Notes: generated by a model from the sequence alone, not told the origin. DNA of 53,515 nucleotides from Patescibacteria group bacterium (GCA_038062895.1 JBBTWJ010000003.1:186254-239768), one strand, 5' to 3'. Positions 44 through 39,454 are shown, counted from the first letter of the stretch. Numbers and translations: made by a program.

Positions 44-298
44 ATGTTCTTTGTTTATATCCTGCGTGGGCCAAAGAATCATCTTTATATCGGTTGCACC
101 AAGGATATCGATCAACGAATTAATCTCCATAAATCTGGAGAAGGAGCAGAATTTACGTTCCGTAATAAAACTCATGAATTGGTCTATCGAGAAAAATTTT
201 CAACCCTACTCGAAGCAAGAAGGAGAGAGAAACAAATTAAAGGCTGGCGAAGAGAAAAGAAAGAGAATCTGATTACATTCGGTAAACCAGTAATCTAA
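44..298 (+). CDS. GIY-YIG nuclease superfamily protein (small stand-alone)
   Basis: ORF track. N-terminus VYILRG..HLYIGCTKDIDQRINLH fits the GIY..YIG..R..H core recalled for this family. Confidence 0.7.
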   Translation: MFFVYILRGPKNHLYIGCTKDIDQRINLHKSGEGAEFTFRNKTHELVYREKFSTLLEARRREKQIKGWRREKKENLITFGKPVI

Positions 299-3684: not shown

Positions 3685-3770
3685 AAAATAATTAGCACGT
3701 GATTAAAAGAACATGAGTAGCACGTGATCAGGTGCTCATCATGTGTTTTTCCATCATGTGCTCATTGCGC
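3685..3770. repeat. word-hairpin, family C (AGCACGTGAT / ATCATGTGCTCAT)
   Basis: Arms are imperfect reverse complements. The same words occur at 4692-4785, 16798-16877 and 20333-20419. Confidence 0.7.
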
Positions 3771-4691: not shown

Positions 4692-4785
4692 AAAAACTTC
4701 AGATGAGCACTTGATAATAAAAACGTGATGAGCACCTGATCATGTGCTAATCATGTCTTTCTATCACGTGCTAATCTCTCCCTTT
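4692..4785. repeat. word-hairpin, family C
   Basis: GATGAGCAC / GTGCTAATCATG words in both orientations. Confidence 0.65.
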
Positions 4786-5406
4786 TTAACGTGAATAATG
4801 CTCCACAATAAGCTGTTCGTTAATATCTTCTTTAATATCACTGCGAATCGGCAATCTGACGACTTTTCCGACCGGTCCTTTTCGCTCTAACCATTCGGGG
4901 ATGACATCAAGCGGTGTATCGATGAGCTTCTTGACCGCCGGAATTCCCAAACCTTTTCCACCCAACGTGATCACATCATCGACTGCTACTTCATACGAAG
5001 GAATCGTGACTTTGCTACCGTTTACCAATACGTGACCATGCGTGATAAATTGACGGGAGGCGGCACGCGTAGGACCTAAACCCAGACGGAATAGCGTATT
5101 ATCGAGTCGTCGCTCGAGAGACTCAAGAAGCTTCTCTCCCGTATTTCCGAGTGATTTACGCGCTCGTCCATATATGCGTCGGAACTGTCGCTCGAGCACT
5201 CCATACAGCCGCTTGACACGCTGCTTCTCCCGAAGCTGCTCACCAAAATCTGATGTCTTCCGGTGCCCCTTGGATCCGTGCATCCCCGGAGGTATACCAA
5301 GACGCTTCAAAAGATTGGCATGAGATTTCGTGCCGAGAGTCTTAAGACCCAAGTCAATGCCTTCGCGTCTTGCAAGTCTATTTTTTGGTCCGGTATATCG
5401 TGCCAT
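4786..5406 (-). CDS. rpsD: 30S ribosomal protein S4
   Basis: MARYTGPK.RL.RREG.DL start and S4 RNA-binding domain. Synteny. Confidence 0.95.
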   Translation of the reverse strand: MARYTGPKNRLARREGIDLGLKTLGTKSHANLLKRLGIPPGMHGSKGHRKTSDFGEQLREKQRVKRLYGVLERQFRRIYGRARKSLGNTGEKLLESLERRLDNTLFRLGLGPTRAASRQFITHGHVLVNGSKVTIPSYEVAVDDVITLGGKGLGIPAVKKLIDTPLDVIPEWLERKGPVGKVVRLPIRSDIKEDINEQLIVEHYSR

Positions 5407-5514
5407 ATTTAATCGTTACTTGGTTAGTTCGTTAATTGGTTACTTCGATAATTACACTATTACTTAATTTATCATTTTTACTAAGTAACAAAATAACTAA
5501 TAACTAACTAACAG
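5407..5514. repeat. word-hairpin, family B (GTTAGTTCGTTA / GTTACTTCG ... CTAAGTAAC..CTAACTAAC)
   Basis: Also at 6305-6400, 16065-16152 and 17250-17335. A one-armed copy lies at 26546-26590. Confidence 0.7.
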
Positions 5515-5887: not shown

Positions 5888-6304
5888 TTATTTTTTCGCT
5901 TCTTCGGTAGACTTTTCCGGTGCTTTTGCCCGATCATCTTTCTTAAGAGCGCCAATGGTCACACGCTTGCCACGTTTGGTGCGGGCATTGCTCCGCGTCC
6001 GTTGGCCACGTAAGGGCAATTTCTTCGCGTGCCGAAGCCCGCGGTAACTCCCGATATCCCGTAACCGTTTAATCGTATCGGAAATATTCCGGCGAAGGTC
6101 TCCTTCTACCATCGCTTGTTTCTCTATGGTTTTGGCAATTTTACCCACTTCCTCATCCGTGAGCGTCTTGACCCTGCGACTGGCATCGATACCTGCCTCA
6201 ACCAAAATCGGTATGACGTTGGTGCGTCCGATACCATAAAGGTACGTGAGTGCAATATCGACACGCTTGTCGTTTGGTATGTCTACTCCAATGATACGGA
6301 CCAT
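5888..6304 (-). CDS. rpsM: 30S ribosomal protein S13
   Basis: [22 protein letters not shown]. Synteny. Confidence 0.95.
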
Positions 6305-6400
6305 ACAATAAGTTAGTTCGTTAGATAGTTACTTTGTTACTTCGTTAATCATTATCAATTTTCTAAGTAACGAACTAACAAGCGTTGCTAACTAACGTTT
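6305..6400. repeat. word-hairpin, family B
   Basis: GTTAGTTCGTTAGATAGTTACTTTGTTACTTCG ... CTAAGTAACGAACTAAC..GCTAACTAAC. Confidence 0.7.
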
Positions 6401-6825: not shown

Positions 6826-6976
6826 ACCAGGTAGTGAAAACTCGACTGATCGATCATGCGATCAAACAAAATTTTCACTTATGATTCAATCTATGCCTTC
6901 AATAATAGAAACTCAATAAAATTATATCCTGATTATCGACTGAAAAATTTTGTGTCGAGTTTCTACTACCTGGCAT
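6826..6976 (-). mobile_element. family D inverted-repeat (MITE-like) element, subfamily a (TIR ..GTAGTGAAAACTCGAC / GTCGAGTTTCTACTAC..)
   Basis: ~22-bp TIRs. The sense-strand 3' end runs CCTGGT-ATG into the infA start. Paralog at 14892-15045. Confidence 0.7.
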
Positions 6977-7107
6977 ACCAGGTAGTAGATTTTCGATATC
7001 TCTTCGAGATGATGGTTACCCAATCCTACAAAAAATACCGATACTACTCTTTGCCGGATAGATTACCAATCGCATCGGCGATTGATCGAAAATTCACTAC
7101 CTGGCAT
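6977..7107 (-). mobile_element. family D element, subfamily b (TIR ..GTAGTAGATTTTCGAT / ATCGAAAATTCACTAC..), tandem to the previous copy
   Basis: Shares the CAT at 6974-6976 with the neighbouring copy. Paralog at 26133-26263. Confidence 0.7.
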
Positions 7108-7221: not shown

Positions 7222-8037
7222 TCAACCCTTCGATAAACTCAGGGTTGACGCTGAATTTATTGAATGCGTCAACACCTGAGGCTCTCCATCCGTGATGAGG
7301 ATACTGTGCTCAAAAACGGCGGAAAGCGAGCCGTCCCTCGTCGCGATAGACCAGCCATCATCATTGACGTAAACTACCGCACCGCGACCTCTTGCATAAA
7401 TCACCTCTACGGCTATCGTCATACCCGGGACGAGCAATGGTGTCACGGCAATAGGAACTTTGACAAATCCGGGAATCTGCGGTTCTTCGTGTAACTCCCG
7501 ACCCACGCCATGACCAACAAGCGTTTTGACGATACCATACCCCGCGCCTTCCACAATTTTTTGAACCGCTTGCGAAATATGCCCGACGCGGTTTCCGGCT
7601 TTGGCTTGAGCGATCCCTTGCCACATGGCGTCTTCCCCTACCCGTAAAAATTCTTCCTTCTCATCACTTTTCCAGCCAGAGGCTGGTCCGCCTTTGGCGG
7701 AGACTACTTTCGTCCATGCCGTATCGGTATGGAATCCCTCATAGAGTAACCCAACATCGATCGTCAATACATCACCTTCTTTGAGTACATACTTCGTTGG
7801 GATCCCGTGAACGACCACATCGTTGACACACAGACACGTCGCCCATTTATATCCCTCCACCGTACGAAATGAAGCTGTCCCACCCGATTTCCGAATCAGC
7901 TCGTCGGCATGAGCTTCGATATCCAGAAGCGAAACACCCGGCTGAGCTTTCTCAAGAAGTTGATTCAAGATGGTCCCAAGCTTGGCTCCTCCCACACGCA
8001 TTGATTGTATTTCGGAAGGAGTTTTAGGAGTAATCAT
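7222..8037 (-). CDS. map: type I methionine aminopeptidase
   Basis: Pita-bread fold motifs (..DVGL.Y.G.H.D...T..VG, HGVGRELHE.P). Synteny. Confidence 0.93.
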   Translation of the reverse strand: MITPKTPSEIQSMRVGGAKLGTILNQLLEKAQPGVSLLDIEAHADELIRKSGGTASFRTVEGYKWATCLCVNDVVVHGIPTKYVLKEGDVLTIDVGLLYEGFHTDTAWTKVVSAKGGPASGWKSDEKEEFLRVGEDAMWQGIAQAKAGNRVGHISQAVQKIVEGAGYGIVKTLVGHGVGRELHEEPQIPGFVKVPIAVTPLLVPGMTIAVEVIYARGRGAVVYVNDDGWSIATRDGSLSAVFEHSILITDGEPQVLTHSINSASTLSLSKG

Positions 8038-8075
8038 AAAGGATTTTACAGGAATTTAGAGGAATTTAGGATATG
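8038..8075. repeat. period-10 word repeat, family H (GGATTTTACA GGAATTTAGA GGAATTTAGG)
   Basis: Three exact 10-nt registers. Related copy at 26974-27011 and an in-CDS copy at 19398-19447. Confidence 0.65.
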
Positions 8076-8765
8076 TTAAAGCAGATTTCGCTTTATAAGC
8101 TCCTCTTTAATTCGTGCGACAACATCTTCTTGATTCATACCCGTTGTATCCAATTCCCATGCGTCAGGAAGTTTTTGCAGTGGATCGGTGACGCGGGTTG
8201 TATCTTGATGATCACGTAGTTTTGTGTCTGACAAAACCTCTTCATGAGTTTTCTTTATCCCTTTTGCATCAAATTGTAGCCATCTTCGATGAGCCCGTTC
8301 CTCAAGGGAAGCAGTAAGATAAATTTTAAGTTGCGCGTTGGGGAGTACCCGCAAACCAATATCCCGCCCCTCCATAACCACCGATTTTCCATGAGCCATA
8401 TCCTGTTGACGGGCAACCATCCACTGGCGAACCTGGGGTATCGTGCCAACGTCTGAGGAACCGATCGCAACATCCTGTTTGAAAATCCTCTCAGTCACAT
8501 CTGAATCATTTAATACTGCGACAAATGGATGAATGCTCGTACTGGAAGGAGGCATAAGCGAAATAATAATTTGTTGGAGTTTTTTACAAACAGAGTCAAT
8601 ATCTTTTGTGGAAATTCCCGCTTCAATACAGGCTAATGCGAGCATCCTATACATCGCACCGGTATAAATATAGGTAAGCTGAAGTTCTTTTGCGAGTCTT
8701 CCGGCGATGTCCCCTTTTCCTGATGCAACCGGCCCATCAATGGCAATTTGAAGTGGGGTGTTCAT
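8076..8765 (-). CDS. cmk: cytidylate kinase
   Basis: IAIDGPVASGKG P-loop and CMP-kinase layout. Start chosen at MNTPLQ (8765), though the ORF extends to 8795. Confidence 0.85.
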   Translation of the reverse strand: MNTPLQIAIDGPVASGKGDIAGRLAKELQLTYIYTGAMYRMLALACIEAGISTKDIDSVCKKLQQIIISLMPPSSTSIHPFVAVLNDSDVTERIFKQDVAIGSSDVGTIPQVRQWMVARQQDMAHGKSVVMEGRDIGLRVLPNAQLKIYLTASLEERAHRRWLQFDAKGIKKTHEEVLSDTKLRDHQDTTRVTDPLQKLPDAWELDTTGMNQEDVVARIKEELIKRNLL

Positions 8766-9416: not shown

Positions 9417-9561
9417 ACCAGGTAGTGAAATTTCGACCTTTGCTCTTTACGCTTTTGGGAAATCTCAATTTCCTTTCTTTATAATAGGACAACCTTAAAA
9501 CCAGGCGACTCTACGACAACGAGCAAAGTCAAAAGCGTGTCGAAATTCTACTACCTGGCAT
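9417..9561 (-). mobile_element. family D element, subfamily c (TIR ..GTAGTGAAATTTCGAC / GTCGAAATTCTACTAC..)
   Basis: Ends on the adk ATG. Its 5' ATG lies 8 nt after the secY stop. Paralog at 29270-29415. Confidence 0.7.
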
Positions 9562-11776: not shown

Positions 11777-11923
11777 ACCGGGTAGTAGAACTTCGATGTT
11801 CCTAACGGAACGTAAGCTCCCCTTTCTTTGTAATATTATTTTGCATTCTCATACTTTCCTCTTTCTTGCCAGAAGTCCTCAACACATGCGTTTACGCATG
11901 ATCGAAGTTTCACTACCCGGCAT
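11777..11923 (-). mobile_element. family D element, subfamily e (TIR CCGGGTAGTAGAACTTCGAT / ATCGAAGTTTCACTACCCGG)
   Basis: Compensatory CCAGG/CCTGG to CCGGG/CCCGG change in both arms. Ends on the rpsE ATG. Its 5' ATG lies 1 nt after the rplR stop. Confidence 0.7.
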
Positions 11924-13308: not shown

Positions 13309-13494
13309 TTACCACGACGCCTTCACGACGCCGGGTAATTCTCCTTTATGTGCTAACTCCCGAAAACACAACCGGCAAATACCAAACTGCCGCATAAATG
13401 CACGGTTTCTTCCGCACAGTCCACAGCGATTTTTATGCCGAACAGCAAATTTTTGTTTATGATCAAATTTAACGACATCCGATGTTTTTGCCAT
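13309..13494 (-). CDS. rpsN: 30S ribosomal protein S14 type Z (zinc-binding)
   Basis: 61 aa with CGLCGR...CRLCFRE. Confidence 0.94.
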
Positions 13495-13633
13495 ACCAGG
13501 TAGTAGATTTTCGCTATTTCTTACGAAATATAAAAACCATGTTCCTTTCTATCAATCATATTTGTTAGTATTTCCAGATAGTTATCGTGTCCATTCCGCC
13601 ATGCGGAATGAGCGAAAATTCACTACCTGGCAT
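13495..13633 (-). mobile_element. family D element, subfamily d (TIR ..GTAGTAGATTTTCGCT / AGCGAAAATTCACTAC..)
   Basis: Ends on the rpsN ATG. Its 5' ATG lies 4 nt after the rplE stop. Paralog at 15520-15655. Confidence 0.7.
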
Positions 13634-13637
13634 AGTG

Positions 13638-14177
13638 TTACTTCTCAAACGGCATCCCCAAAAGCGTAAGGAGCTTTTTGGCATGCTCATCGTTGCCTGA
13701 TTTGGTCACAAAGGTCACCTCATATCCGCGCGTTTTATCAACCATAGTATAGTCAAGCTCCGGAAAAATGGTCTGATCGGCAATTCCCAATGTATAGTTG
13801 CCGTTTCCGTCAAAACCGGATCCCGATACACCCCGAAAATCCCGGACCCGGGGAAGAGCAATGGTCACGAGCCGGGTAAAAAAGTCCGACATGAGATGAC
13901 CCCGGAGGGTCACTTTGAGTCCGACGGTATCCCCCGCCCGCAGTTTGAACGATGAAATCGCTCTCTTGGCACGCGTAACGCTCGGCTTCTGACCGGTAAT
14001 AACGCTAAGCTGCGCAGATACTTTTTCAATGACTTTTTTGTCTGCAAGCGCCTCGCGGCCAATGCCACAGTTAACCACAATTTTGATCAAACGGGGAACG
14101 GCCATGAGATTGGCAATCCCAAGTTCTGTCATCAATTTTGGTCTGATTTCTTTGATATATTGTTCTTGTACGGTCAT
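13638..14177 (-). CDS. rplE: 50S ribosomal protein L5
   Basis: L5 core. Start trimmed to MTVQEQY (ATG 14177-14175), giving an ATGA overlap with the rplX stop. The ORF track extends to 14201. Confidence 0.92.
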   Translation of the reverse strand: MTVQEQYIKEIRPKLMTELGIANLMAVPRLIKIVVNCGIGREALADKKVIEKVSAQLSVITGQKPSVTRAKRAISSFKLRAGDTVGLKVTLRGHLMSDFFTRLVTIALPRVRDFRGVSGSGFDGNGNYTLGIADQTIFPELDYTMVDKTRGYEVTFVTKSGNDEHAKKLLTLLGMPFEK

Positions 14178-14479
14178 ATCTTTTGTTGGCATTTGCGACA
14201 AATTCTCTCTTTTTCACCTTTGACGACTAAATATCCCACCCGTGTAGGCTGACTACACTTTGGGCACATAAGCGCCACCTTGCTGACTGCAATGGGTTTC
14301 GTAACATCGATAATACCTCCAGCCTTCTTCTCGTCACGCTTTTTCATGTGCCGCTTATAGACGTTCACCCCTGTGACAACCACTGACCCTAAGGCGGGAA
14401 ACGTTTGCTCAACTTTTCCTTTTTTTCCTTTATCTTTTCCTGTTGTAACGATAATGGTGTCGCCTTTCTTTAGTTTCAT
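14174..14479 (-). CDS. rplX: 50S ribosomal protein L24
   Basis: MKLKKGDTIIVTTGKDKGKKGKV KOW motif. The longer ORF to 14632 overlaps rplN and reads through a REP element. Confidence 0.92.
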   Translation of the reverse strand: MKLKKGDTIIVTTGKDKGKKGKVEQTFPALGSVVVTGVNVYKRHMKKRDEKKAGGIIDVTKPIAVSKVALMCPKCSQPTRVGYLVVKGEKERICRKCQQKI

Positions 14480-14483
14480 AAGA

Positions 14484-14510
14484 CTGGATTCCCGCCTTCG
14501 CGGGAATGAC
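14484..14510. repeat. REP-like palindrome CTGGATTCCCGCCTTCGCGGGAATGAC (family R)
   Basis: Identical to the copy at 37450-37476. Confidence 0.8.
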
Positions 14511-14516
14511 AAATAA

Positions 14517-14891
14517 CTAATAAACCTCTGCTGCCATACTGACAATTTTATTAAACCCGCGGTCTTTAAGCTCCCGTGCCACCGGACCGAATATACGGCT
14601 ACCCCGTGGATTTTTGTCATCCGGATTATCAATCACTACCCCCGCGTTATCATCAAATCGAATATAGGACCCATCGGCACGATGAAATTCCTTATGTACC
14701 CGGACAACGACAACTTTCACCATTTCATCTTCTTTGACGAGTCCGGTAGGATCACCCTTCCTCACGACGCACTGGACGATGTCTCCGAGACTGGCAAACT
14801 TGCGTTTGGAAGATCCATAGATATGGATGACCACCATCTCTCTGGCTCCTGAATTATCTGCAACTACTAATGATGTACGTCGTTGAATCAT
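14517..14891 (-). CDS. rplN: 50S ribosomal protein L14
   Basis: MIQ....VADNSGA typical L14. Confidence 0.95.
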   Translation of the reverse strand: MIQRRTSLVVADNSGAREMVVIHIYGSSKRKFASLGDIVQCVVRKGDPTGLVKEDEMVKVVVVRVHKEFHRADGSYIRFDDNAGVVIDNPDDKNPRGSRIFGPVARELKDRGFNKIVSMAAEVY

Positions 14892-15045
14892 ACCAGGTAG
14901 TGAAAACTCGACTGCTCGCTTGAGCGAGCAAGCAAAATTTTCATTTGCTTAACTATACCATCTATATTTTTATGTTGGTCTATCATGTAATATTTAATCC
15001 TCAGTTACTTAAAAATTTTGTGTCGAGTTTCTACTACCTGGTCAT
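14892..15045 (-). mobile_element. family D element, subfamily a
   Basis: Same TIRs as 6826-6976. Ends on the rplN ATG. Its 5' ATG overlaps the rpsQ TGA as ATGA (15042-15045). Confidence 0.7.
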
Positions 15046-15287
15046 AGCTTTTCTATTACTATAAAGTGCTTCCTCTTGCTCATGGGTACAGTTTCTTGCA
15101 TCTTCACACTATCACCCACGTTTATATCTGCCATCTCGTTGTGGGCCGCAAACCGCCGGCTTTTGCGGACTGTTTTTTTGTATAGCTTATGAGCAAATGT
15201 CCGTATGACCTCAACGGTAACGGTTTTGTTCATTTTGGTCGAAACGACCTTCCCAACCATAGTTCTCCCCTTCATTTCATTTTTCAT
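15042..15287 (-). CDS. rpsQ: 30S ribosomal protein S17
   Basis: GKVVSTKMNKTVTVEV......H..Y.K typical S17. Confidence 0.94.
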   Translation of the reverse strand: MKNEMKGRTMVGKVVSTKMNKTVTVEVIRTFAHKLYKKTVRKSRRFAAHNEMADINVGDSVKMQETVPMSKRKHFIVIEKL

Positions 15288-15309
15288 ATAATTTTTCTGA
15301 CCAAGACTG

Positions 15310-15519
15310 TTATTCTACCAGAGTAAGCTCTCTTTCGCGTAGTATCGTTTTTGCCACAGCCACCCGGGTACGTTTTGCACGGAACAAACGGAGATTTTTT
15401 AATTGTTTGGTCTTCCGTTCTACCCGGCCTTTGAGCATTTCCGTTTCCAGCGTACCTATTTGTTTCGTAAGCTCTTGATCAGACATGCTGCGCAGTGATT
15501 GTATTTCTTTCTTTTTCAT
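15310..15519 (-). CDS. rpmC: 50S ribosomal protein L29
   Basis: 69 aa helical protein with L29 pattern (..LR..S..EL...) between rplP and rpsQ. Confidence 0.9.
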   Translation of the reverse strand: MKKKEIQSLRSMSDQELTKQIGTLETEMLKGRVERKTKQLKNLRLFRAKRTRVAVAKTILRERELTLVE

Positions 15520-15655
15520 ACCAGGTAGTAGATTTTCGCTATTTTATGCAAAATAAAAAAACCTTATTCCTCTCTATCAATCTTTGATCGTATTCCCGGG
15601 TAGTCGTCTCGTGCGTCCCATTAAGTGGGACGAGCGAAAATTCACTACCTGGCAT
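15520..15655 (-). mobile_element. family D element, subfamily d
   Basis: Ends on the rpmC ATG. Its 5' ATG lies 1 nt after the rplP TGA. Confidence 0.7.
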
Positions 15656-15656
15656 A

Positions 15657-16064: not shown

Positions 16065-16152
16065 AAATTAAAATCGTTAGTTCGTTAGTTAGTTGCTTCG
16101 TTACTTCGTAAGAATATTTTCCTCTAAGTAACCAAGTAACACGCGTTGCTAA
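16065..16152. repeat. word-hairpin, family B
   Basis: CGTTAGTTCGTTAGTTAGTTGCTTCGTTACTTCGTAA ... CTAAGTAACCAAGTAAC..GTTGCTAACTAAC. Confidence 0.7.
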
Positions 16153-16797
16153 CTAACTCCTTCGGCAGATCCACACTTTTACCCCGATATACCCTGACTT
16201 AGTAAGAGCGGGAGCTATGGCAAAATCTATATCTTCCCGAATCGTCGAAAGCGGAATCGTCCCTGATTGAAACTTTTCGCGTCTGGCAATTTCGGCTCCG
16301 TTTATGCGTCCAGAAAGTCTGATACGCACTCCTTTGGCTCCAGATGAGATAGCCCGTTCTACTGCCTGATTGCAAACCCGCTTATGCGGCATCCGGCGAA
16401 CAAGCTGATCCGCGATGGTATTGGCTACCAACGTAGCATTGAGATTAGGCTCCTTGACCGGCTCAACCGCGATGTCCACTTTCACGCCCTGACCGACCTT
16501 CAGCCGCTTGCTTAAAATGCCCTCTATAAGCTTTTTGAGTATTTCAAGCCCACTGCCGCCCCGACCGATAACCACTCCGGGACGGGAGACGTGCACCGTA
16601 ACTTTGACTTTGTTAATCGACCGTTCGATTTCCACCAGCGCTAGTCCCGCACTTTTGAGCTTCAGGCCTAGTTCGCGCCGGAGGGCAACATCGGCTAACA
16701 ACAACGTGCTGTAGGTCCGGCTGTCGGCATACCACCGCGAGGACCAGTTAAATACCGGGCCGATTCGAAATCCTCTTGGATTAATTTTTTGTCCCAT
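16153..16797 (-). CDS. rpsC: 30S ribosomal protein S3
   Basis: MGQKINPRGFR start (ATG 16797-16795). The ORF-track extension to 16839 reads into a family C repeat. Confidence 0.93.
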   Translation of the reverse strand: MGQKINPRGFRIGPVFNWSSRWYADSRTYSTLLLADVALRRELGLKLKSAGLALVEIERSINKVKVTVHVSRPGVVIGRGGSGLEILKKLIEGILSKRLKVGQGVKVDIAVEPVKEPNLNATLVANTIADQLVRRMPHKRVCNQAVERAISSGAKGVRIRLSGRINGAEIARREKFQSGTIPLSTIREDIDFAIAPALTKSGYIGVKVWICRRS

Positions 16798-16877
16798 GGT
16801 TAAGAGATTAGCACGTGATGAAAAAGACATGATGAACACGTGATCATGTGCTCATCATGTGAACTTCTATCATGTGC
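16798..16877. repeat. word-hairpin, family C
   Basis: GATTAGCACGTGATGAAAAAGACATGATGAACACGTGATCATGTGCTCATCATGTG..ATCATGTGCTCATCC. Confidence 0.7.
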
Positions 16878-17249
16878 TCATCCATGACCTCCTTTAACAG
16901 ACTGACTACGAGAAGTTGCCACCTCATCAGTTAATACCACTCTTATATGTGTCATTCTCTTTTTAAATGCGTGTGCTTGACCTTTCGATACTGCGTGCCA
17001 CCGCTTCATAACCGGACCCGGTAACACTTCGATCGACTTGATCCGAAGCAAAGAAACATCTGCTTTTTTTTCTTTTGCACCGGCAAGTGCTGAAGAAAGC
17101 ACACTACCCAACGGCTCACCCGCACGCTTCGGCAGTGATCCAAGCCGTATAAGGGCAGCCTGCGGCGGCAACCGACGGATTGATCGCGAGACCAACTGCA
17201 CCTTGCGCGGACTCATCCTGACATATTTCGCAACAGCTTGATATTCCAT
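16878..17249 (-). CDS. rplV: 50S ribosomal protein L22
   Basis: A....VR.SPRK...V...IR L22 start. Synteny. Confidence 0.93.
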   Translation of the reverse strand: MEYQAVAKYVRMSPRKVQLVSRSIRRLPPQAALIRLGSLPKRAGEPLGSVLSSALAGAKEKKADVSLLRIKSIEVLPGPVMKRWHAVSKGQAHAFKKRMTHIRVVLTDEVATSRSQSVKGGHG

Positions 17250-17335
17250 AAATTGTTAATTCGTTATTCGTTACTTGGTTACTTCGTAAAAAATATTCAT
17301 GGCTTTCTAATAACAAAGTAACGAACTAACAAAAC
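17250..17335. repeat. word-hairpin, family B
   Basis: GTTAATTCGTTATTCGTTACTTGGTTACTTCGTAA ... AATAACAAAGTAACGAACTAAC. Confidence 0.65.
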
Positions 17336-17620
17336 TTACGTTTTGTCCATCGTCCTCTTCGTCACTTGTCCGTGGCCTCTAAATGTTCGCGTCGGACTAA
17401 ACTCCCCTAACCGGTGACCGATCATGGCCTCGGTCACAAATACTTCGATAAATGTGCGACCGTTATGGACTCCGAACCGGTGCCCGACGAAATCAGGCGA
17501 AATCTGACACGCACGCGACCACGTCTTAATCGGTAGACGATCTCCTCCAGCTTTCTGGCGATTGACCTTTGCCAGAACTCTCGGATCTATGTATGGACCT
17601 TTTTTAGAACTTCTTGCCAT
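17336..17620 (-). CDS. rpsS: 30S ribosomal protein S19
   Basis: [11 protein letters not shown] typical S19. Confidence 0.95.
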
Positions 17621-20332: not shown

Positions 20333-20419
20333 GCGTGATTAGCACGTGATTAAAAAAACGTGATTAGCACGTGATTGTTTCATGTGCTCATCATGTTCTT
20401 TCCATCAAGTGTTCATCAT
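20333..20419. repeat. word-hairpin, family C
   Basis: GTGATTAGCACGTGATTAAAAAAACGTGATTAGCACGTGATTG..CATGTGCTCATCATG..CATCAAGTGTTCATCAT. Confidence 0.7.
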
Positions 20420-20752: not shown

Positions 20753-21088
20753 CTATTTATCAATTTCTTTATTGCTAGAATTATGAACAATCCTTACTGC
20801 AACACCATAAATTGTCCCTTCGACTTGATCTCCAACATCTAAACTTGTATTAATGGCAATATGATTCGGCTCCCCCATGACAATCTCGTTTGCCGTAACC
20901 AAGGCATAATGCACACTCCCATCCGATTCATGAGTGACAGTAATCAGTCCACTATTCTTTTCTCCAAGACCAATTTCATCAAAAACGATATTTTTCGAAG
21001 CCGGAAATGACCAACCTTCCTCCGCCTTACCTTCGTGAAGGATAATTGGCTCATCCGCCCCTGCCATAAAAAGAACAACAGCCCCCAT
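20753..21088 (-). CDS. hypothetical 111-aa protein inserted between tuf and rpsJ
   Basis: Clean ORF, stop 9 nt before the rpsJ ATG. No motif recognised. Visibly AT-richer than its neighbours. Confidence 0.5.
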   Translation of the reverse strand: MGAVVLFMAGADEPIILHEGKAEEGWSFPASKNIVFDEIGLGEKNSGLITVTHESDGSVHYALVTANEIVMGEPNHIAINTSLDVGDQVEGTIYGVAVRIVHNSSNKEIDK

Positions 21089-26132: not shown

Positions 26133-26263
26133 ATGCCAGGTAGTGAATTTTCGATCAATCGCCTCGCGATTGGATAACTACCCGGCGAATTAGAGGGTTA
26201 TCGATATTTTTTAGACCATAGGATCACCTATCTCGAAGAGATATCGAAAATCTACTACCTGGT
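26133..26263 (+). mobile_element. family D element, subfamily b, plus-strand orientation, in the csoR 5' UTR
   Basis: ATGCCAGGTAGTGAATTTTCGAT...ATCGAAAATCTACTACCTGGT-ATG(csoR). Its interior is similar to 6977-7107 read on the sense strand. Confidence 0.7.
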
Positions 26264-26545
26264 ATGCCAAAAGGAATGCCGAGAGATCAATCAATTGAAC
26301 GCACCATACTCCACCGTCTAAAAATCGCGCGTGGACATTTGGAAAAAGTCATTACCATGGTTGAGGAAGGCCACTACTGCATCGATGTGGTCCACCAATC
26401 CATGGCCATCCAGGCGGCGCTGCGGGAAGCGGATCATCTGATACTCAAAAATCATATGGAAACATGTGTGGCTGACTCGATCAGAAAAGGCGAAAGCCGC
26501 GAGGTGATAGATGAAGTGATGAAGATAATGGAGAAAAAAGGTTAG
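26264..26545 (+). CDS. csoR: CsoR/RcnR-family metal-sensing transcriptional repressor
   Basis: 93 aa, L.RLKRI.GH......M......C.D...Q.......L layout with Cys/His/Cys ligand positions (..YCIDV..Q, ..H.ETC). Confidence 0.88.
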   Translation: MPKGMPRDQSIERTILHRLKIARGHLEKVITMVEEGHYCIDVVHQSMAIQAALREADHLILKNHMETCVADSIRKGESREVIDEVMKIMEKKG

Positions 26546-26577
26546 TTGGTTAGTTCGTTACTTAGTTACTTTGTTAA

Positions 26578-26973
26578 TTGGTTAATTTGTACGAGAAAAT
26601 TATGGATAAAATTATTGTTACTATTACCGGACTTTTTTCAATGGCGGGAATATATTGGTTTTTCTTTGGGAAAAAGTCCCGCGAAACGGGATCCCGCTCC
26701 GCGGAAGAGGATGCAAAAGATTCCTGGACGATAACCGTGGATGGCGGATACAAACCGAATATCATTAGAATTCCTAAAGACAAACCGGCAACACTGACAT
26801 TCATCCGTAACGATGCCAATAGTTGTCTGGAGGAAGTCGTTTTTCCGGATTATAAAATAAAAAAATATCTTCCACTGAACAAAGAGGTGATCATTACGCT
26901 CCCCTCTCCACACAAAAAATCCGGATTCCATTGCGGGATGTCTATGTTCCAAGGAAGAATCGAAACAACGTAA
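26578..26973 (+). CDS. membrane-anchored cupredoxin-like domain protein
   Basis: N-terminal TM helix, then ITVDGGYKPN.I.IPKDKP..L.F.R.D...C......P.......LP........P.....G.HCGMSM. Start may be the internal MDKII. Confidence 0.7.
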   Translation: MVNLYEKIMDKIIVTITGLFSMAGIYWFFFGKKSRETGSRSAEEDAKDSWTITVDGGYKPNIIRIPKDKPATLTFIRNDANSCLEEVVFPDYKIKKYLPLNKEVIITLPSPHKKSGFHCGMSMFQGRIETT

Positions 26974-27011
26974 AGGAATTTAGAGGAGTTTAAAGGATTT
27001 TAGAGGAATTT
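26974..27011. repeat. period-10 word repeat, family H (GGAATTTAGA GGAGTTTAAA GGATTTTAGA GGAATTT), supplies the copA SD-like GAGGA
   Basis: Exact 10-nt phasing. Related to 8038-8075. Confidence 0.65.
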
Positions 27012-29273
27012 ATGCCCAATACAAAAATTTCTTTCCCTATCATCGGCATGCATTGCGCGAGTTGCGCGCGGCTCATCGAAAAAAAACTACAAAAAACACC
27101 GGGGGTGACGGATGCGATGGTCAATTACGGGAGCGAACAAGCGTCGGTCGAGTTTGATGAGACGTCCTGTTCTTTAGATGCAATCGGAAAAGCAGTAGAA
27201 GATATAGGGTATCAAGCGATACTCTCACCGAAAGAAAAATTCAGCGAAGCCGGATCTGGCCCCACCATGACACCAGATGAACTCAAAGAAGAAGCAAAAA
27301 AGAAAGAGCTCGTGGATTTAAAACGGAAGGTTATCATCTCCGGCATCTTGAGTGCATTGATTATGATTGGAAGCTTCCCGGAATGGTTTGGGATCTTCAT
27401 GTCGCCATACGTTCTGCTTCTGCTCACTATCCCCGTCCAATTCTGGGCAGGGTGGGGATTTTATCAAGCAACGTGGTCGGGACTCAAAAACCGAGCCGCC
27501 GGCATGGATACGCTCATCGCAATCGGCACGAGCGCTGCATTCGGATTTTCCGTTCTCACCACATTTTTTGAAATGCAACTGCGCGTTGCCGGATTTCCGA
27601 TCATTATGTATTACGACACAGCTGCCGTCATCATTGCGCTCATCCTCCTTGGCCGCTATCTGGAAGCGAAAGCCAAAGCACATACCAGTGACGCAATTAA
27701 AAAACTTCTGCATCTGCAGGCCAAAACCGCCCGCGTCGTCCGGGATGGACAAGAAGTCGATATACCTATTGAAGAAGTCAAAACGGGCGACACAATCCGC
27801 GTCCGACCGGGAGAAAAGATTCCCGTCGATGGAAAAATCTCTGACGGATCATCAAGCGTCGATGAGTCCATGGTGACGGGCGAGTCCATGCCGGTTGACA
27901 AAAAAATAGGCGATCCCGTCATTGGGGCGACCATCAATAAAACCGGTACGTTCCTGTTTTTGGCGACAAAAGTAGGAAGCGACACGATGCTGGCTCAAAT
28001 TGTCACGATGGTCGCCCAGGCACAAAGCTCGCGTGCGCCAATTGCCCGGCTTGCCGATGTCATCTCTTCTTACTTCGTACCCATCGTCCTCATGCTTGCC
28101 GCCGCGACCTTCGTCATATGGTACGACTTTGGCTCATTCGCTCAAGCATTTACCAATATGATCGCCGTCCTGATCATAGCGTGCCCCTGCGCGCTGGGGC
28201 TTGCGACCCCCACAGCTATCATGGTCGGAACCGGACGGGGTGCCGAACGCGGAATCCTCATCAAAGACGCCCAAGCTCTAGAGATTGCCCATAAAACAAA
28301 AGTCGCCGTCTTTGATAAAACCGGGACGCTTACCCGAGGAGAACCAAAAGTCACGGATGTAGTATTTGCGGATGCAATCAAAAATATCAATCAGATAAAA
28401 GCGGCAATTGCCGCCGTTGAGGCAAACTCTGAGCATCCGTTGTCCCGGGCCATCATTATGTCTGAAATTTTCAAAAGGGTAAACCTTAAAAGGGTACAGG
28501 ATTTAACCTTAAAAAACTTCTCCGCGATCGAGGGTTTCGGCGTCAAGGGAAACGTCAATGATCTCCCCATACTCGTCGGGAACAAAAAACTCATGGAGAG
28601 AGAAGGCGTGACGCACAGCGCAGAGTTGGATAAGAAAGCCGATGAATGGATGCATCAAGGTAAGACCCTCGCATACGTCTCTGTTAAAGAAAAAAACGTA
28701 GCTCTCATCGCTATCGCCGATACGATCAAAACTGAAGCCAAAGAAATGGTCTCATCCCTCAAAAAAATGGGGGTTGCTGTATGGATGATCACCGGGGACA
28801 ACGAAGTGACCGCCCGGGCAATAGCCAAACAAGCAGGGATTGATAACATCCTTGCCGGGGTATTGCCGCAGGAAAAAGCGGAAAAGATTAAAGCATTAAA
28901 AAGTGGCAATACCACTGTTGCGTTTGCAGGTGATGGAATTAATGACGCGCCAGCCTTGGCTGCAGCCGACGTCGGAATAGCGATGGGAACAGGCACCGAC
29001 GTGGCAATAGAATCAGCGGGTATTACTTTACTCAATAAAGATTTGAGAAGTGTCGTGACGGCCGTAAATCTCTCCCGCGTAACCCTGGGCGTCATCAAAC
29101 AAAATCTTTTCTGGGCATTTGGCTATAACGTCATCCTCATCCCCGTGGCCATGGGGGTGCTCTACCCCATCTGGGGATTGCTTCTCAATCCGGCTCTGGC
29201 CGCCTTTGCGATGGCGGCAAGCAGCATATCCGTTGTAGGAAATTCATTACGGTTGAAAGGAGTACACATATGA
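27012..29273 (+). CDS. copA: copper-translocating P1B-type ATPase
   Basis: N-terminal HMA GMHCASC, TGES, CPC ([13 protein letters not shown]), [15 protein letters not shown]. Confidence 0.96.
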
Positions 29274-29415
29274 CCAGGTAGTAGAATTTCGACACGCTTT
29301 TCACTTTGCCCGTGTCGTTTTGAGACTCCTGGGTTGCAGCAATTAAAATTTATAAAGAAAGGACGTTGAGATTTCGAAAAGCGTAAAGGCAAAGGTCGAA
29401 ATTTCACTACCTGGT
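29270..29415 (+). mobile_element. family D element, subfamily c, plus-strand orientation
   Basis: ATGACCAGGTAGTAGAATTTCGAC...TCGAAATTTCACTACCTGGT-ATG. Its 5' ATG overlaps the copA TGA (ATGA). The interior matches 9417-9561 read on the sense strand. Confidence 0.7.
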
Positions 29416-29913
29416 ATGAACAGTGATACAAAAATAATCATTGGGGTGATAGTCGCAAGTATCGCCATCATTGGAGCCGCCGTATTCTTGCTCGGTAATG
29501 ACAAAAGTCCCAAACGCGAAACGCTTGGGATTGCGTCCATGACGATAGATAAAACATTTGAGGATTTTGGCGATATGAAGTCTACTGAAGAAAAAACTGC
29601 ACTATTCACAATCACCAATACGAGCGATGCAATTTTGCGTATTTGGAGTGTATCCACAAGCTGCAACTGTACGTTCGCAAGCGTGATAATTGGTGGTGTA
29701 GCGAGTGGCGAATTTAACATGCCCGCCCATATGATCGCGGCTCTCAAAAACTGGATTGGCGAAGTGCCGGCTAAACAAACGGCAACACTCAAGGTCACCT
29801 ATAAACCAAACATTATGCCGGTGATCGGAGTGGTGACACGGCAAACTCGATTCTCGACAAACGATCCAAAAAATGCGGAAGTAGAAGTGTCGGTAAAAGC
29901 AAATGTATTGTAA
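29416..29913 (+). CDS. membrane-anchored DUF1573-like protein (STSCNCT motif)
   Basis: N-terminal TM helix. F.I.N.....L.I..V..SC.CT pattern recalled for DUF1573. Confidence 0.6.
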   Translation: MNSDTKIIIGVIVASIAIIGAAVFLLGNDKSPKRETLGIASMTIDKTFEDFGDMKSTEEKTALFTITNTSDAILRIWSVSTSCNCTFASVIIGGVASGEFNMPAHMIAALKNWIGEVPAKQTATLKVTYKPNIMPVIGVVTRQTRFSTNDPKNAEVEVSVKANVL

Positions 29914-37131: not shown

Positions 37132-38913
37132 ATGATATTACTGGTCGCATTTTCGTTTTTTGGCGGTATCGTCACGATCCTTTCTCCGTGTATTTTGCCT
37201 ATCCTACCTATCGTGCTGTCCGGCTCGATAACCGGAGGAAAACATCGGCCGTGGGGGGTCATAATGGGATTCATCGCGAGTTTTACCTTTTTCACACTAT
37301 TCCTTTCGGTAATTGTAAAAGCGACAAACATCTCAGCCGATTTGCTCCGGACTTTTTCTATAGTCATCATCGCAGGATTTGGTCTATCCCTCATCATTCC
37401 ATCGTTACGGGTGATGACGGAAAACTTATTTTCCAAACTAAGCCAAAAACTGGATTCCCGCCTTCGCGGGAATGACAAACATGGGGGCGGGAACGACAAT
37501 TTTTCTACCCGCTCTGATTTTGCTGCCGGACTTCTCGTTGGTTTGAGCTTGGGACTCCTCTGGACACCATGCGTCGGACCGATCCTTGCTTCGATCATTA
37601 CTCTTGCCGCAGCAAGCAAAGTCACCACGGATGCAGTATTCATCACTCTTGCGTATGCAGCAGGCACTGCTCTTCCACTTCTGGCAATAACATATGGCGG
37701 GCGAAGTCTCCTGACTAAAAACCCGTGGCTTGTGGCCAATACCAACCGTATTCAAAAAGGATTTGGGGTCCTGATGATACTTACCGCCATAGCTATTTAC
37801 TTCCAGGTAGATCGCACGTTCCAATCATATATACTGAATACATTCCCCTCTTATGGTGTGGGCTTAACAAAATTCGAGGATAACACAACGATAAAAAATG
37901 CATTACAACAGTTACAAAATCCGTCAGTAAGAAAAGAACCATCTATGGTAAATAAATTTTTGGAATCAGACCTGGGAAATGCACCAGAACTCATCCTCGG
38001 TGGGGTATGGTTTAATGTACCTTCCGGTCAACAATCTCTGAGTATCAAAAGTCTTCGAGGACAAGTAGTGCTCATCGACTTTTGGACGTATACGTGCATC
38101 AATTGTATTCGAACACTTCCCTACCTCAAATCGTGGCATGACAAGTATAAAGACAAAGGACTGACTATCATCGGCATTCACACGCCCGAGTTTGAATTTG
38201 AAAAAAATCCGGATAACGTGTCACGCGCAATCCGCGACTTTGGTATCACCTATCCGGTGATGCAGGACAATGATTTTGCCACTTGGAACGCATATGCAAA
38301 TCACTATTGGCCGGCCAAATACTTGGTCGATAAAAACGGAAAAATCCGCTATACACACTTCGGTGAAGGAGACTATGACGAGACGGAGACAAAAATTCAG
38401 GAACTGTTAAAAGAGTCCGGCACACTCACCCAGGAAATGCCGGTGGACAATCCGACGTACCAAATCCAGGCCCGGACACCGGAAACGTACTTAGGCAACT
38501 GGCGGATAGCCAACATCGCATCGCCTGAACGCATACGACAAGACGTGCTGACCAGCTACTCCATTCCCGGAAATCTCTCTGGAAATTCTTTCGCATTCGG
38601 TGGCGCATGGACCGTGGGGTATGAGTACGCCCGGCCAACGACTGGCGGAAAACTCTCTTTCCGCTTCGATGCAAAAGACGTCTTTCTCGTCATGCGACCC
38701 ACAACACAAGGGGTAACGGGCAGTTTCCGCGTGCTTCTGGACGGAAAATCCGTAAGCGTCGATATTGCCGGTGAAGACGTACGAGATGGAGTCGTGCATG
38801 TCGATCGCGACCGGCTCTATACACTTATCAAACTTACCAGTGGGGGCGAGCACACGTTGGAACTGCAATTTCTCGACGGCAATAATGAACTGTACGCATT
38901 TACGTTTGGTTGA
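37132..38913 (+). CDS. DipZ-like fusion: CcdA-type membrane domain + TlpA/redoxin-like thioredoxin domain (CINC) + C-terminal beta-rich domain
   Basis: LSPCILPILP and WTPCVGPIL CcdA motifs. FWTYTCINCIRTLPYL. The architecture matches mycobacterial DipZ as recalled. Confidence 0.8.
   Translation: MILLVAFSFFGGIVTILSPCILPILPIVLSGSITGGKHRPWGVIMGFIASFTFFTLFLSVIVKATNISADLLRTFSIVIIAGFGLSLIIPSLRVMTENLFSKLSQKLDSRLRGNDKHGGGNDNFSTRSDFAAGLLVGLSLGLLWTPCVGPILASIITLAAASKVTTDAVFITLAYAAGTALPLLAITYGGRSLLTKNPWLVANTNRIQKGFGVLMILTAIAIYFQVDRTFQSYILNTFPSYGVGLTKFEDNTTIKNALQQLQNPSVRKEPSMVNKFLESDLGNAPELILGGVWFNVPSGQQSLSIKSLRGQVVLIDFWTYTCINCIRTLPYLKSWHDKYKDKGLTIIGIHTPEFEFEKNPDNVSRAIRDFGITYPVMQDNDFATWNAYANHYWPAKYLVDKNGKIRYTHFGEGDYDETETKIQELLKESGTLTQEMPVDNPTYQIQARTPETYLGNWRIANIASPERIRQDVLTSYSIPGNLSGNSFAFGGAWTVGYEYARPTTGGKLSFRFDAKDVFLVMRPTTQGVTGSFRVLLDGKSVSVDIAGEDVRDGVVHVDRDRLYTLIKLTSGGEHTLELQFLDGNNELYAFTFG
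37450..37476. repeat. REP-like palindrome (family R) inserted in-frame inside the DipZ-like CDS
   Basis: CTGGATTCCCGCCTTCGCGGGAATGAC is translated as LDSRLRGND within a loop of the CcdA domain. Confidence 0.8.
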
Positions 38914-38971: not shown

Positions 38972-39454
38972 ATGAATATCCTCCTCATCTATGCCACCAA
39001 CTCCGGTAGTACTGCGGAGGCCGCCAATATCATCGCAGATGTCTTGACCGGAAAAGGGCATGCAGTATCGGTCAAAAACGCAACAACCGTGACGCCTGAA
39101 GACGTGCTGGCTGCGCCATTTTTCATCCTGGGATCTCCAAGTTGGAATCATGACGATCTCGAGGGACAGCCACTTCCGGAGATGGAAGAGTTCATCGCGC
39201 GCTGCAAAGACATCAAACTCAATGGGAAACCCTGTGCAGTATTTGGATTAGGTGATAGTTCCTACACCTACTTTTGCGGTGCAGTCACCTACCTTGAGGC
39301 GTTTATCAAACGTGCCAAAGGCACACTCATTGTTCCGTCCCTCAAGGTGGACGGATTTTATATGAAGCCGGGCGCAAGTGAGAATATCACAAAATGGGCA
39401 AAGGAGGTAGCGGAGAAGATGGATCCCCGCCTTCGCGGGGATGACAACCTATAG
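38972..39454 (+). CDS. short-chain flavodoxin
   Basis: ILLIYATNSGSTAEAA FMN-phosphate loop. 160 aa. Confidence 0.8.
   Translation: MNILLIYATNSGSTAEAANIIADVLTGKGHAVSVKNATTVTPEDVLAAPFFILGSPSWNHDDLEGQPLPEMEEFIARCKDIKLNGKPCAVFGLGDSSYTYFCGAVTYLEAFIKRAKGTLIVPSLKVDGFYMKPGASENITKWAKEVAEKMDPRLRGDDNL
39420..39445. repeat. REP-like palindrome (family R) forming the 3' end of the flavodoxin CDS
   Basis: TGGATCCCCGCCTTCGCGGGGATGAC encodes the terminal MDPRLRGDDNL*. Confidence 0.75.

Follow-up and report, generated by a model that had tools for sequence, protein, structure and literature searches.

Mobile foldback elements at start codons in Patescibacteria share their termini with a ~310-bp form that encodes a GIY-YIG nuclease

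Why would short intergenic repeats keep their hairpins in place and in shape while the sequence of those hairpins changes? The question is raised by a 53,515-nt stretch of DNA from a Patescibacteria group bacterium (GCA_038062895.1, JBBTWJ010000003.1:186254-239768), analysed here as a whole and called the window. The original prediction, which centred on positions 13,495 to 15,655, held that paired copies of a repeat preserve internal hairpins by compensatory substitution, and that this covariation reflects selection on a folded nucleic acid, either RNA or single-stranded DNA (ssDNA), rather than decaying junk. We find that the paired changes in stems and hairpins are real. The answer that we favour, and hold to be probable, is that the window repeats are miniature inverted-repeat transposable elements (MITEs) of a foldback family that encodes a GIY-YIG nuclease, and that the form under selection is a folded ssDNA substrate of this nuclease.

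The elements end in the terminal motif CCAGGTAGT(AG/GA)A. A search of the window for this motif returned 18 arms, against 0.75 expected by chance, and the 18 arms make up nine elements of 127-149 nt in 53 kb (Table 1). Seven of the nine lie inside the S10-spc-alpha ribosomal-protein operon on the minus strand, as seven insertions at six intergenic sites. Paired copies are 75-83% identical overall, and all nine, as single strands, fold far better than shuffled sequences (z from -3.3 to -7.6). The proposed hairpins can be read directly in the sequence. Between the copies at 13496 and 15521, which are 78% identical overall, hairpin 1 changes from ATTTC-TTAC-GAAAT to ATTTT-ATGC-AAAAT, and hairpin 2 from CATTCCGC-CAT-GCGGAATG to CGTCCCA-TTAAG-TGGGACG; most positions of the hairpin 2 stem differ, yet the stem is perfect in both. 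The copies at 6827 and 14893 carry TGATCG-ATCATG-CGATCA and TGCTCGC-TTGA-GCGAGCA, respectively, and the copy at 11778 has CCGGG/CCCGG in its two arms, as described. The crossed complementarity of the copies at 9418 and 29274 is also present, as CTTTGCTC/GAGCAAAG versus CTTTGCC/GGCAAAG, and the reported step of GA opposite CT, found in all nine copies, consists of an A.C mismatch with an adjacent G.T wobble at stem positions 10-11. One pair is a weaker example than was claimed: the copies at 6978 and 26136 do contain CAATCGC-ATCG-GCGATTG and CAATCGC-CTC-GCGATTG, but they differ in the loop only, and there is no compensation.

A larger collection of copies shows the same pattern. We scanned GTDB species genomes with a pattern that fixes only 12 nt at each end; after duplicate removal this gave 128 elements of 125-154 nt from at least 111 loci (individual loci are cited below by L number). 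The loci are spread across many genomes, almost all of them from the Patescibacteria (candidate phyla radiation, CPR). Most are metagenome bins and some taxon labels are unreliable; the clearly named lineages are all Patescibacteria groups. In a covariance-model alignment of 150 rows, which holds both strands of many elements and hence fewer than 150 distinct ones, the 20-bp terminal stem is 98.2% paired, and 11 of its 19 pairs show two-sided changes, which at one pair extend to 51 rows. The pairing and the two-sided changes both exceed those of all 500 shuffles, and slid controls were only 23-49% paired.

The terminal stem has a regular layout, with nine invariant outer pairs, then the invariant A.C+G.T step, then 8-10 pairs that are variable but complementary. 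In the window, one arm always reads GTAGA at the step and the other GTGAA. The same AGA/GAA asymmetry between the arms is seen in 126 of the 128 MITE-size copies, though the scan pattern allowed any purines, and in all 69 of the longer, open reading frame (ORF)-bearing copies described below. Compensated changes at the outermost terminus are CCGGG/CCCGG, CCCCG/CGGGG, CCAGGAAGT/ACTTCCTGG, and TCAGG/CCTGA. Across the 128 MITE-size and 69 ORF-bearing copies, the interiors have diverged beyond recognition, and the stems are still paired through many different sequences. With stems that stay paired across such diverged copies and a mismatch step that is kept, the case for selection on a folded nucleic acid, as opposed to decaying junk, has held up, and it is well supported that the compensatory changes reflect selection for the fold of one strand.

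The covariation does not end with the terminal stem. Inside it, the copies follow two layouts. In the first, a GC-rich hairpin lies directly inside one arm in 38 of the 128 copies, compared with ~2.6 in shuffles (15x); these hairpins have 27 distinct stems, and a smaller hairpin often lies inside the other arm. In the second layout, seen in ~35-44 copies, left positions 21-28 pair with right positions 32-39 and left 31-38 with right 21-28, an order of blocks that makes the two helices cross. When each copy's own pairing was compared with non-self pairings under an equal register search, the crossed helices lay above the 99th percentile of non-self in 32/128 copies (helix B), 19/128 (helix A), and 13/128 (both), where 1.3, 1.3, and 0.01, respectively, were expected. 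In a plain MAFFT alignment of 11 homologous copies, which was not fitted to structure, the two helices are 89% and 71% paired, and each has four both-sided pair changes; none of 500 shuffles matched this, and the slid controls were beaten. The covariation therefore extends to a topology beyond a simple cruciform. A search of the window against Rfam returned nothing at gathering score, only chance-level matches at E<5.

Are these elements mobile? Target duplications and orthologous empty sites show that they are. Identical direct repeats, usually of 4 bp (range, 3-5 bp), flank the elements in many different sequences, mostly CATA/TATG but also TATA, CATT, TACA, TCAA, TGAG, TTTT, CAAG, and CACG. 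Where the window has CATA-element-CATA at the start of S14 (the copy at 13496), locus L034, whose operon is ~80% identical, has a single CATA. The L29 start, which holds the copy at 15521, is likewise a single site in both L034 and L042, and empty orthologous sites exist for the copies at 11778 (in L162) and 14893 (in L042). The same is true of ORF-bearing copies: the empty counterpart of the one in L162 is the start of the EF-G gene in the window, near 24495, with a single TATG, and that of the one in L178 is found in L198. Taken together, the window repeats have the attributes of MITEs: they are below ~300 bp, non-coding, and multicopy, with terminal inverted repeats, with duplications and empty sites, and with a longer coding form.

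The insertions favour start codons. An ATG that opens an ORF of at least 40 codons follows the element by 0-1 nt in 101-103 of the 128 copies, and the insertions sit between the translation signals of a gene and its ATG. In the case of L29, the ribosome-binding site GAAGGA has been left upstream of the element, 136 nt before the ATG. Gene starts of the form TATG (T at -1) occur in 41 of the 54 called genes of L002 and L212, from the window genome (30/35 in the ribosomal-protein region and 11/19 elsewhere). We considered that the elements might target start codons far beyond their preference for TATG, but this idea is weakened by the background: 28 of 52 TATG/CATA sites outside coding sequence in the ribosomal-protein region are themselves start codons, versus ~80% of insertions. 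Leaderless promoters as the target would explain only a subset, since 24 of 80 flanks have TANNNT at 6-8 nt upstream of the ATG, an enrichment of about 2x.

Several side observations concern these insertion sites. The share of TATG among gene starts is far above that given by base composition, and TATG is the preferred target of the element. Flanks with a TANNNT -10-like hexamer occur, for example, in L054, L068, L104, L115, and L178/L198, and some target genes may be leaderless. The S14 start codon is occupied by a crossed-helix element in L042 (2422-2558) and by the hairpin-type element at 13496 in the window, a distant genome; different subfamilies at one site imply independent insertions. 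At the S5/L18 junction, where the window has the copy at 11778, L034 carries an unrelated palindromic insert of ~95 nt (2872-2975) right after CATA. The elements often stand in tandem with one TATG shared between neighbours, either two MITEs or a MITE and an ORF-bearing element (L127, L137, L159, L169, L171, L182, and 6827-7104 in the window); the target is restored by every insertion. Mini-elements of 67-76 nt, with the terminal stem and one small hairpin, were seen in L094 (4159-4234), L046 (1861-1928), L061 (5631-5697), and L030 (2872-2938), with clean duplications (TCAA, CAAG, CCATG, and TATG) and with compensated outermost pairs, e.g., CCCCG...CGGGG. L086 (4209-4356) has five head-to-tail units of 34 nt, each a bare 30-nt foldback (CCAGGTAGTAGAGCATAGCACACTGCCTGG) plus CAAG; the array resembles the product of a minimal element that inserted again and again into the target it had itself duplicated.

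What could move such elements? New here is that the same termini bracket elements of ~310 bp that encode only a GIY-YIG nuclease. The first of these, a 309-nt element in L031, was found while stray arms were being checked. We then scanned metagenomes for these termini at a spacing of 270-300 nt, which yielded at least 96 loci with elements of 294-323 bp, 82 of which have an intact ORF of at least 75 amino acids (aa), typically 85-91 aa; 69 intact copies are non-redundant. The ORF starts 22-30 nt from the 5' end of the element (at 27 nt in 47 of 82); its stop is in most copies 15-20 nt short of the 3' end, which leaves ~20 nt to the host ATG. Its product is a single-domain protein that matches Pfam PF01541 (GIY-YIG) over residues 3-69 with E=9e-19, and an NCBIfam search with it gave nothing above cut-off. 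Read in the direction of the ORF, the flanks are TATG..TATG in 48 copies and CATA..CATA in none, so the element is co-oriented with the gene whose ATG follows it. Among the non-redundant copies, 49 have a flush upstream ATG, and in 32 of these the ORF is in frame with it with no stop between; in keeping with this, the proteins in public gene calls open with MPGSENST.I, a translation of the 5' arm.

The ORF-bearing copies have also diverged in their stems. Their inner stems fall into ~20 haplotypes, all of them complementary, with arms separated by ~270 nt of translated ORF, and their proteins are 72-100% identical. Two copies occupy different start codons on one contig (L143 and L163, Ga0265595_1000853), and an exact 97-aa protein, P0001, is found on 57 contigs. 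There are also intermediates: L012 is a 125-nt MITE that retains the first codons of the ORF and 30 C-terminal codons, and L075 contains a remnant of 204 nt. We considered MITE interiors in general as relics of the ORF, but only L012 is recognisable as such at the DNA or protein level. Judged by its gene content, the ~310-bp form may be autonomous. We found no description of this element in the open-access literature, including that on CPR MITEs and GIY-YIG insertion sequences (ISs).

The closest known system is the Ssn family. Ssn nucleases are single-domain GIY-YIG proteins of ~94 aa (CDD cd10448) that bind a hairpin repeat (NTS/SRM) in ssDNA and cut beside it, and that are inactive on double-stranded DNA (dsDNA) and RNA (Chenal et al., Nat Commun 2025, PMC11893778). 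In addition, 42% of Ssn genes are flanked by the repeat on both sides, a layout that the authors liken to an IS (PMC11893778). By domain and size, the element protein is likewise a bare GIY-YIG domain; its gene is bracketed by a repeat, and that repeat forms a DNA hairpin and has many intergenic copies. The differences are also clear. Here each flanking repeat is one half of a single 20-bp stem and not a hairpin of 20-50 nt in its own right; duplications and empty sites show movement that was only suspected for Ssn; and the element inserts at start codons, with the same orientation as the host gene, and has ORF-less derivatives of 127-150 nt.

By analogy with Ssn, we propose that the selected form is ssDNA, in which the terminal stem would join both element boundaries as the substrate of the GIY-YIG nuclease. 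MITE copies would then persist only while they keep the fold. Insertion duplicates 3-5 bp, usually 4 bp and mostly TATG, the usual context of a start codon in these genomes, and places the element between the ribosome-binding site or promoter and a regenerated ATG. The ORF, which in most cases shares the frame of the upstream start-codon copy, borrows the host's initiation signals, and its stop ~20 nt before the host ATG would allow ribosomes to re-initiate on the host gene. Folding of the mRNA may, in addition, lessen harm to that gene. Why ssDNA and not RNA, given that the original prediction named both? Three observations lean this way. Among single mismatches, G.T and A.C are equally frequent on the element strand (18:18) and nearly so on the sense strand (16:13), and the transcribed strand thus lacks the bias for G.U over A.C. 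Covariation between the arms is undiminished across ~270 nt of translated ORF. Finally, the Ssn nucleases, if they are a fair guide, act on hairpins in ssDNA.

It is tempting to stop there. However, several points weigh against this picture. The role of the nuclease in moving the elements is suggested by analogy rather than by biochemistry of the element protein, whose nearest solved structures by sequence are UPF0213 proteins and SLX1. A GIY-YIG hydrolase alone cannot rejoin DNA, and we know of no mechanism by which cutting of ssDNA would yield a 4-bp duplication. The published SRM motif, HGTCWY..RNCYNB, matches none of the 128 elements, and on this count we rejected the idea that the MITE hairpins are Ssn-related motifs. 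The nuclease model does not account for the crossed helices. Apart from L012, it is their termini, target, and taxon that appear to link the MITEs to the ORF-bearing form. Part of the association with start codons follows from the preference for TATG. A constraint at the RNA level would likewise be consistent with the purine-rich sense strand and with the strict co-orientation of elements and host genes. Our harvest patterns demand both termini, and the scans were limited in length, such that decayed copies and other size classes are under-sampled.

The proposal can be extended, more tentatively. It is possible, if on balance doubtful, that all of the following hold together. The ~310-bp form would be self-sufficient and the smallest known transposable element, a new class of IS whose sole protein is an 88-residue GIY-YIG nuclease. 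This nuclease would recognise the ends only when they are paired in folded ssDNA, with the A.C+G.T step as a mark of strand or register and the crossed helices as a pseudoknot in the substrate. Landing on start codons, use of host initiation, and return of the ribosomes 20 nt later would all be evolved traits of the element, and repeated insertion and excision could explain why ~3/4 of genes in this genome start with TATG.

Constraint at the mRNA level is a serious rival to selection on ssDNA, even if we rate it as unlikely. Here the fold would be selected in the host mRNA, where only compactly folding copies leave the essential downstream gene expressed, and compensatory changes would arise in place under host-level selection. 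The fold could place the ribosome-binding site close to the AUG, could be unwound by ribosomes that began at the upstream AUG copy, or could undergo RNase III-type processing. Much about the elements fits: the seven window copies within the ribosomal-protein operon must be co-transcribed with it, the L29 ribosome-binding site is stranded as described above, and RNase III is listed among the factors discussed as retained in Patescibacteria (PMC12641178). The interior of the sense strand is purine-rich in 79 of 97 copies. The motif TAYCTGG, an internal copy of the 3' terminus, is found in gene-sense orientation in 48 of 101 copies, versus 6 antisense and ~6.5 in shuffles; it lies 35-72 nt from the 5' end of the sense strand (e.g., the reverse complement of window 13575-13583). 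About one third of copies also have an AAGGA/GGAG-like motif 50-59 nt from the 3' end, and neither motif is recognisable as an ORF relic. We considered TAYCTGG as an alternative partner of the 5' arm, but it does not covary with the arms, and the copies at 15521 and 26136 have CCCGG inside and CCAGG in the arms.

Against the mRNA explanation, the sense strand has no excess of G.U over A.C, and the stem covaries equally in ORF-bearing copies, despite a separation of ~270 nt between their arms and translation of the 5' one. Some 25 of the 128 copies lie away from start codons, and their arms are nonetheless complementary by the same criterion. The routes themselves also fare poorly. Window copies show no consistent distance from ribosome-binding site to AUG across the stem, and Shine-Dalgarno-like 4-mers are rare upstream of most copies, which argues against a stem that bridges the two. 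The short ORFs opened from the flanking upstream ATG in MITE copies end at scattered positions and in roughly uniform frames, which speaks against re-initiation after a short ORF in these copies.

A second explanation does without selection on the fold: template switching in replication or repair would copy one arm onto the other and mimic compensation. Template switching is a process that creates and maintains perfect hairpins, and the stems are indeed nearly always perfect, with no strand bias of G.T over A.C. We nevertheless regard it as very unlikely. Simple homogenisation of the arms would erase the A.C+G.T step, but the step survives in the middle of the stem, in the same 126/128 and 69/69 copies, while its neighbours covary. 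Crossed helices ~80 nt apart covary too, and hairpin 2 shows replacement of a whole stem between 78%-identical copies, not repair of a single mismatch. Least probable of all is that the arms are ordinary dsDNA terminal inverted repeats bound by a DDE transposase, with subfamilies that track their own transposases: terminal inverted repeats with a 3-5 bp duplication are a hallmark of cut-and-paste transposition, and the element termini and duplication recall the IS1380 family, in which termini start with CC and duplications are 4-5 bp, but in 0.9 Mb of loci we saw neither a transposase-like gene nor two arms spaced by 0.5-3 kb (solo arms turned out to be degenerate partners, mini-elements, or tandem copies), the longer elements found with these termini code for the GIY-YIG nuclease and nothing else, and there are five inner-stem haplotypes among the nine window copies and at least 20 among ORF-bearing copies with proteins 72-100% identical, so specificity cannot track the inner stem.

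How does the element compare with other known systems? It combines known kinds (MITEs and ISs on one side, GIY-YIG hairpin-repeat systems on the other) with unusual features. The REP/REPIN elements are mobilised by RAYT transposases (Bertels and Rainey 2011, PMC3116915). Both the REPIN/RAYT and the IS200/IS605 systems resemble the elements studied here in that short hairpin repeats are spread between genes by a small nuclease that recognises folded ssDNA, the structure is kept while the sequence drifts, and the enzyme gene is flanked by the repeat. However, their HUH (Y1) tyrosine transposases form covalent intermediates and leave no target duplication, whereas our elements end in long terminal inverted repeats and duplicate 3-5 bp of target. 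No HUH enzyme was found with the elements, whose only associated ORF is the GIY-YIG one.

The Correia elements of Neisseria and the ERIC elements of enterobacteria are MITEs of 100-150 nt with long terminal inverted repeats that are transcribed within operons, where their RNA folds into long hairpins that can undergo processing and influence the genes beside them. Our elements are like them in size, terminal inverted repeats, and transcribed intergenic location; they differ in termini, target (TA for Correia), and host range, and Correia and ERIC lack the start-codon position and the conserved mismatch step. We know of no protein-coding form of either. The attC sites of integrons are imperfect inverted repeats of 57-141 nt that are conserved as a folded single strand, in which fixed unpaired bases mark the strand. 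In contrast to our elements, they are used by a tyrosine integrase with no target duplication, their core is 7 nt rather than 12 nt, and their place is behind gene cassettes, not in front of start codons. Free-standing GIY-YIG homing endonucleases, such as I-TevI and the Seg proteins of phage T4, have a DNA-binding domain and spread by repair from the occupied allele. They too are selfish GIY-YIG genes inserted between host genes, but homing genes have no terminal repeats or target duplication, whereas here a bare catalytic domain has copies at many unrelated start codons.

Patescibacteria genomes are tiny and are thought to be poor in mobile DNA. If the 88-residue nuclease does move these elements, they would be by far the smallest protein-coding transposable elements, and they would offer a natural minimal system for structure-guided cutting of ssDNA. 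The hundreds of diverged copies with fixed anchor points are a test bed for telling selection on a DNA fold from selection on an RNA fold. The seven insertions between translation signals and start codons in an essential operon also raise a question for the host: how is translation kept going? Gene calling is affected as well, as spurious MPGSENST extensions have already been produced, and starts beside the elements need care. Finally, the elements provide a concrete case of movement for repeat-flanked small GIY-YIG proteins, which had earlier been suspected to be mobile (PMC11893778).

The window also holds what may be a system of the Ssn type. Four sites match the SRM motif (2712-2739, 14484-14511, 37450-37477, and 39419-39446, all on the minus strand), where shuffles give ~0.3. 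A separate gene at 44-298 (plus strand) encodes an 84-aa single-domain GIY-YIG protein (Pfam E=7e-15) that is 38% identical to the element protein of L031, and it lacks the CCAGGTAGT arms. This gene is possibly the partner of the four SRM hairpins, and a canonical Ssn-type system and the studied element appear to coexist as distinct things. The SRM-matching GC-rich hairpins (e.g., TGTCATTCCCGCGAAGGCGGGAATCCAG) almost fit the Neisseria NTS consensus, and the one at 14484, in the L24/L14 gap, lies within 13495-15655. Outside the window (L001, ~20830-20960), tandem units of ~30 nt that contain AAAGTCGTAGACTTTGAGCTTGTCCAAT precede the 84-aa GIY-YIG gene.

Table 1. Positions of the nine MITE-size elements in the window, with their flanking duplications and structural features.
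Position	Length (nt)	Strand	Location	Flanking duplication	Features
6827..6973	147	-	first of tandem pair upstream of infA	CATA/CATA; right CATA common to copy at 6978	subfamily shared with copy at 14893; ssDNA fold z = -7.5
6978..7104	127	-	second of tandem pair		subfamily of copy at 26136; hairpin adjoins one arm
9418..9558	141	-	secY/adk gap	CATA/CATA	crossed-helix class; 9438-9445 and 9449-9457 pair with 9521-9528 and 9531-9538
11778..11920	143	-	L18/S5 gap		termini changed on both sides
13496..13630	135	-	L5/S14 gap	CATA at 13492-13495 and 13631-13634	20-bp terminal stem, 13496-13515 with 13611-13630; hairpin 1, 13516-13529; hairpin 2, 13592-13610
14893..15041	149	-	S17/L14 gap	TCATA (5 bp) at 14888-14892 and 15042-15046	hairpin of the 6827 subfamily
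15521..15652	132	-	L16/L29 gap	CATA at 15517-15520 and 15653-15656	hairpin 1, 15541-15554; hairpin 2, 15614-15632
26136..26262	127	+	just before ATG of 93-aa ORF 26264-26545	TATG/TATG	subfamily of copy at 6978
29274..29414	141	+	P-type ATPase gene/DUF1573 gene gap	TATGA at 29269-29273 and 29415-29419	crossed-helix class; 29294-29302 pairs with 29376-29384, 29304-29310 with 29388-29394

The window sequence matches groundwater contigs from Hainich, from the 0.1 µm filter fraction (ENA ERZ1292625). Its two halves match separate contigs of one ENA assembly (L001/L212, R1_435 and R1_1373), so the window comes either from another assembly or from a scaffold that joins both.

Other intergenic repeats are present as well. 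They consist of units with a period of 8 or 10 nt (GTTAGTTC.., TAAAGGATTT.., TAGGAGAAGG..) or of ATTAGCACGTGAT-type units, and they often occur in inverted pairs. They lie at 5399-5469, 6304-6396, 16068-16157, 17270-17347, and 26533-26595; at 3691-3765, 4703-4777, 16807-16881, and 20338-20412; at 8027-8078 and 26961-27022; and at 949-1011 and 1899-1941. Nearly every intergenic gap of the ribosomal-protein operon contains a hairpin-forming repeat of some kind.

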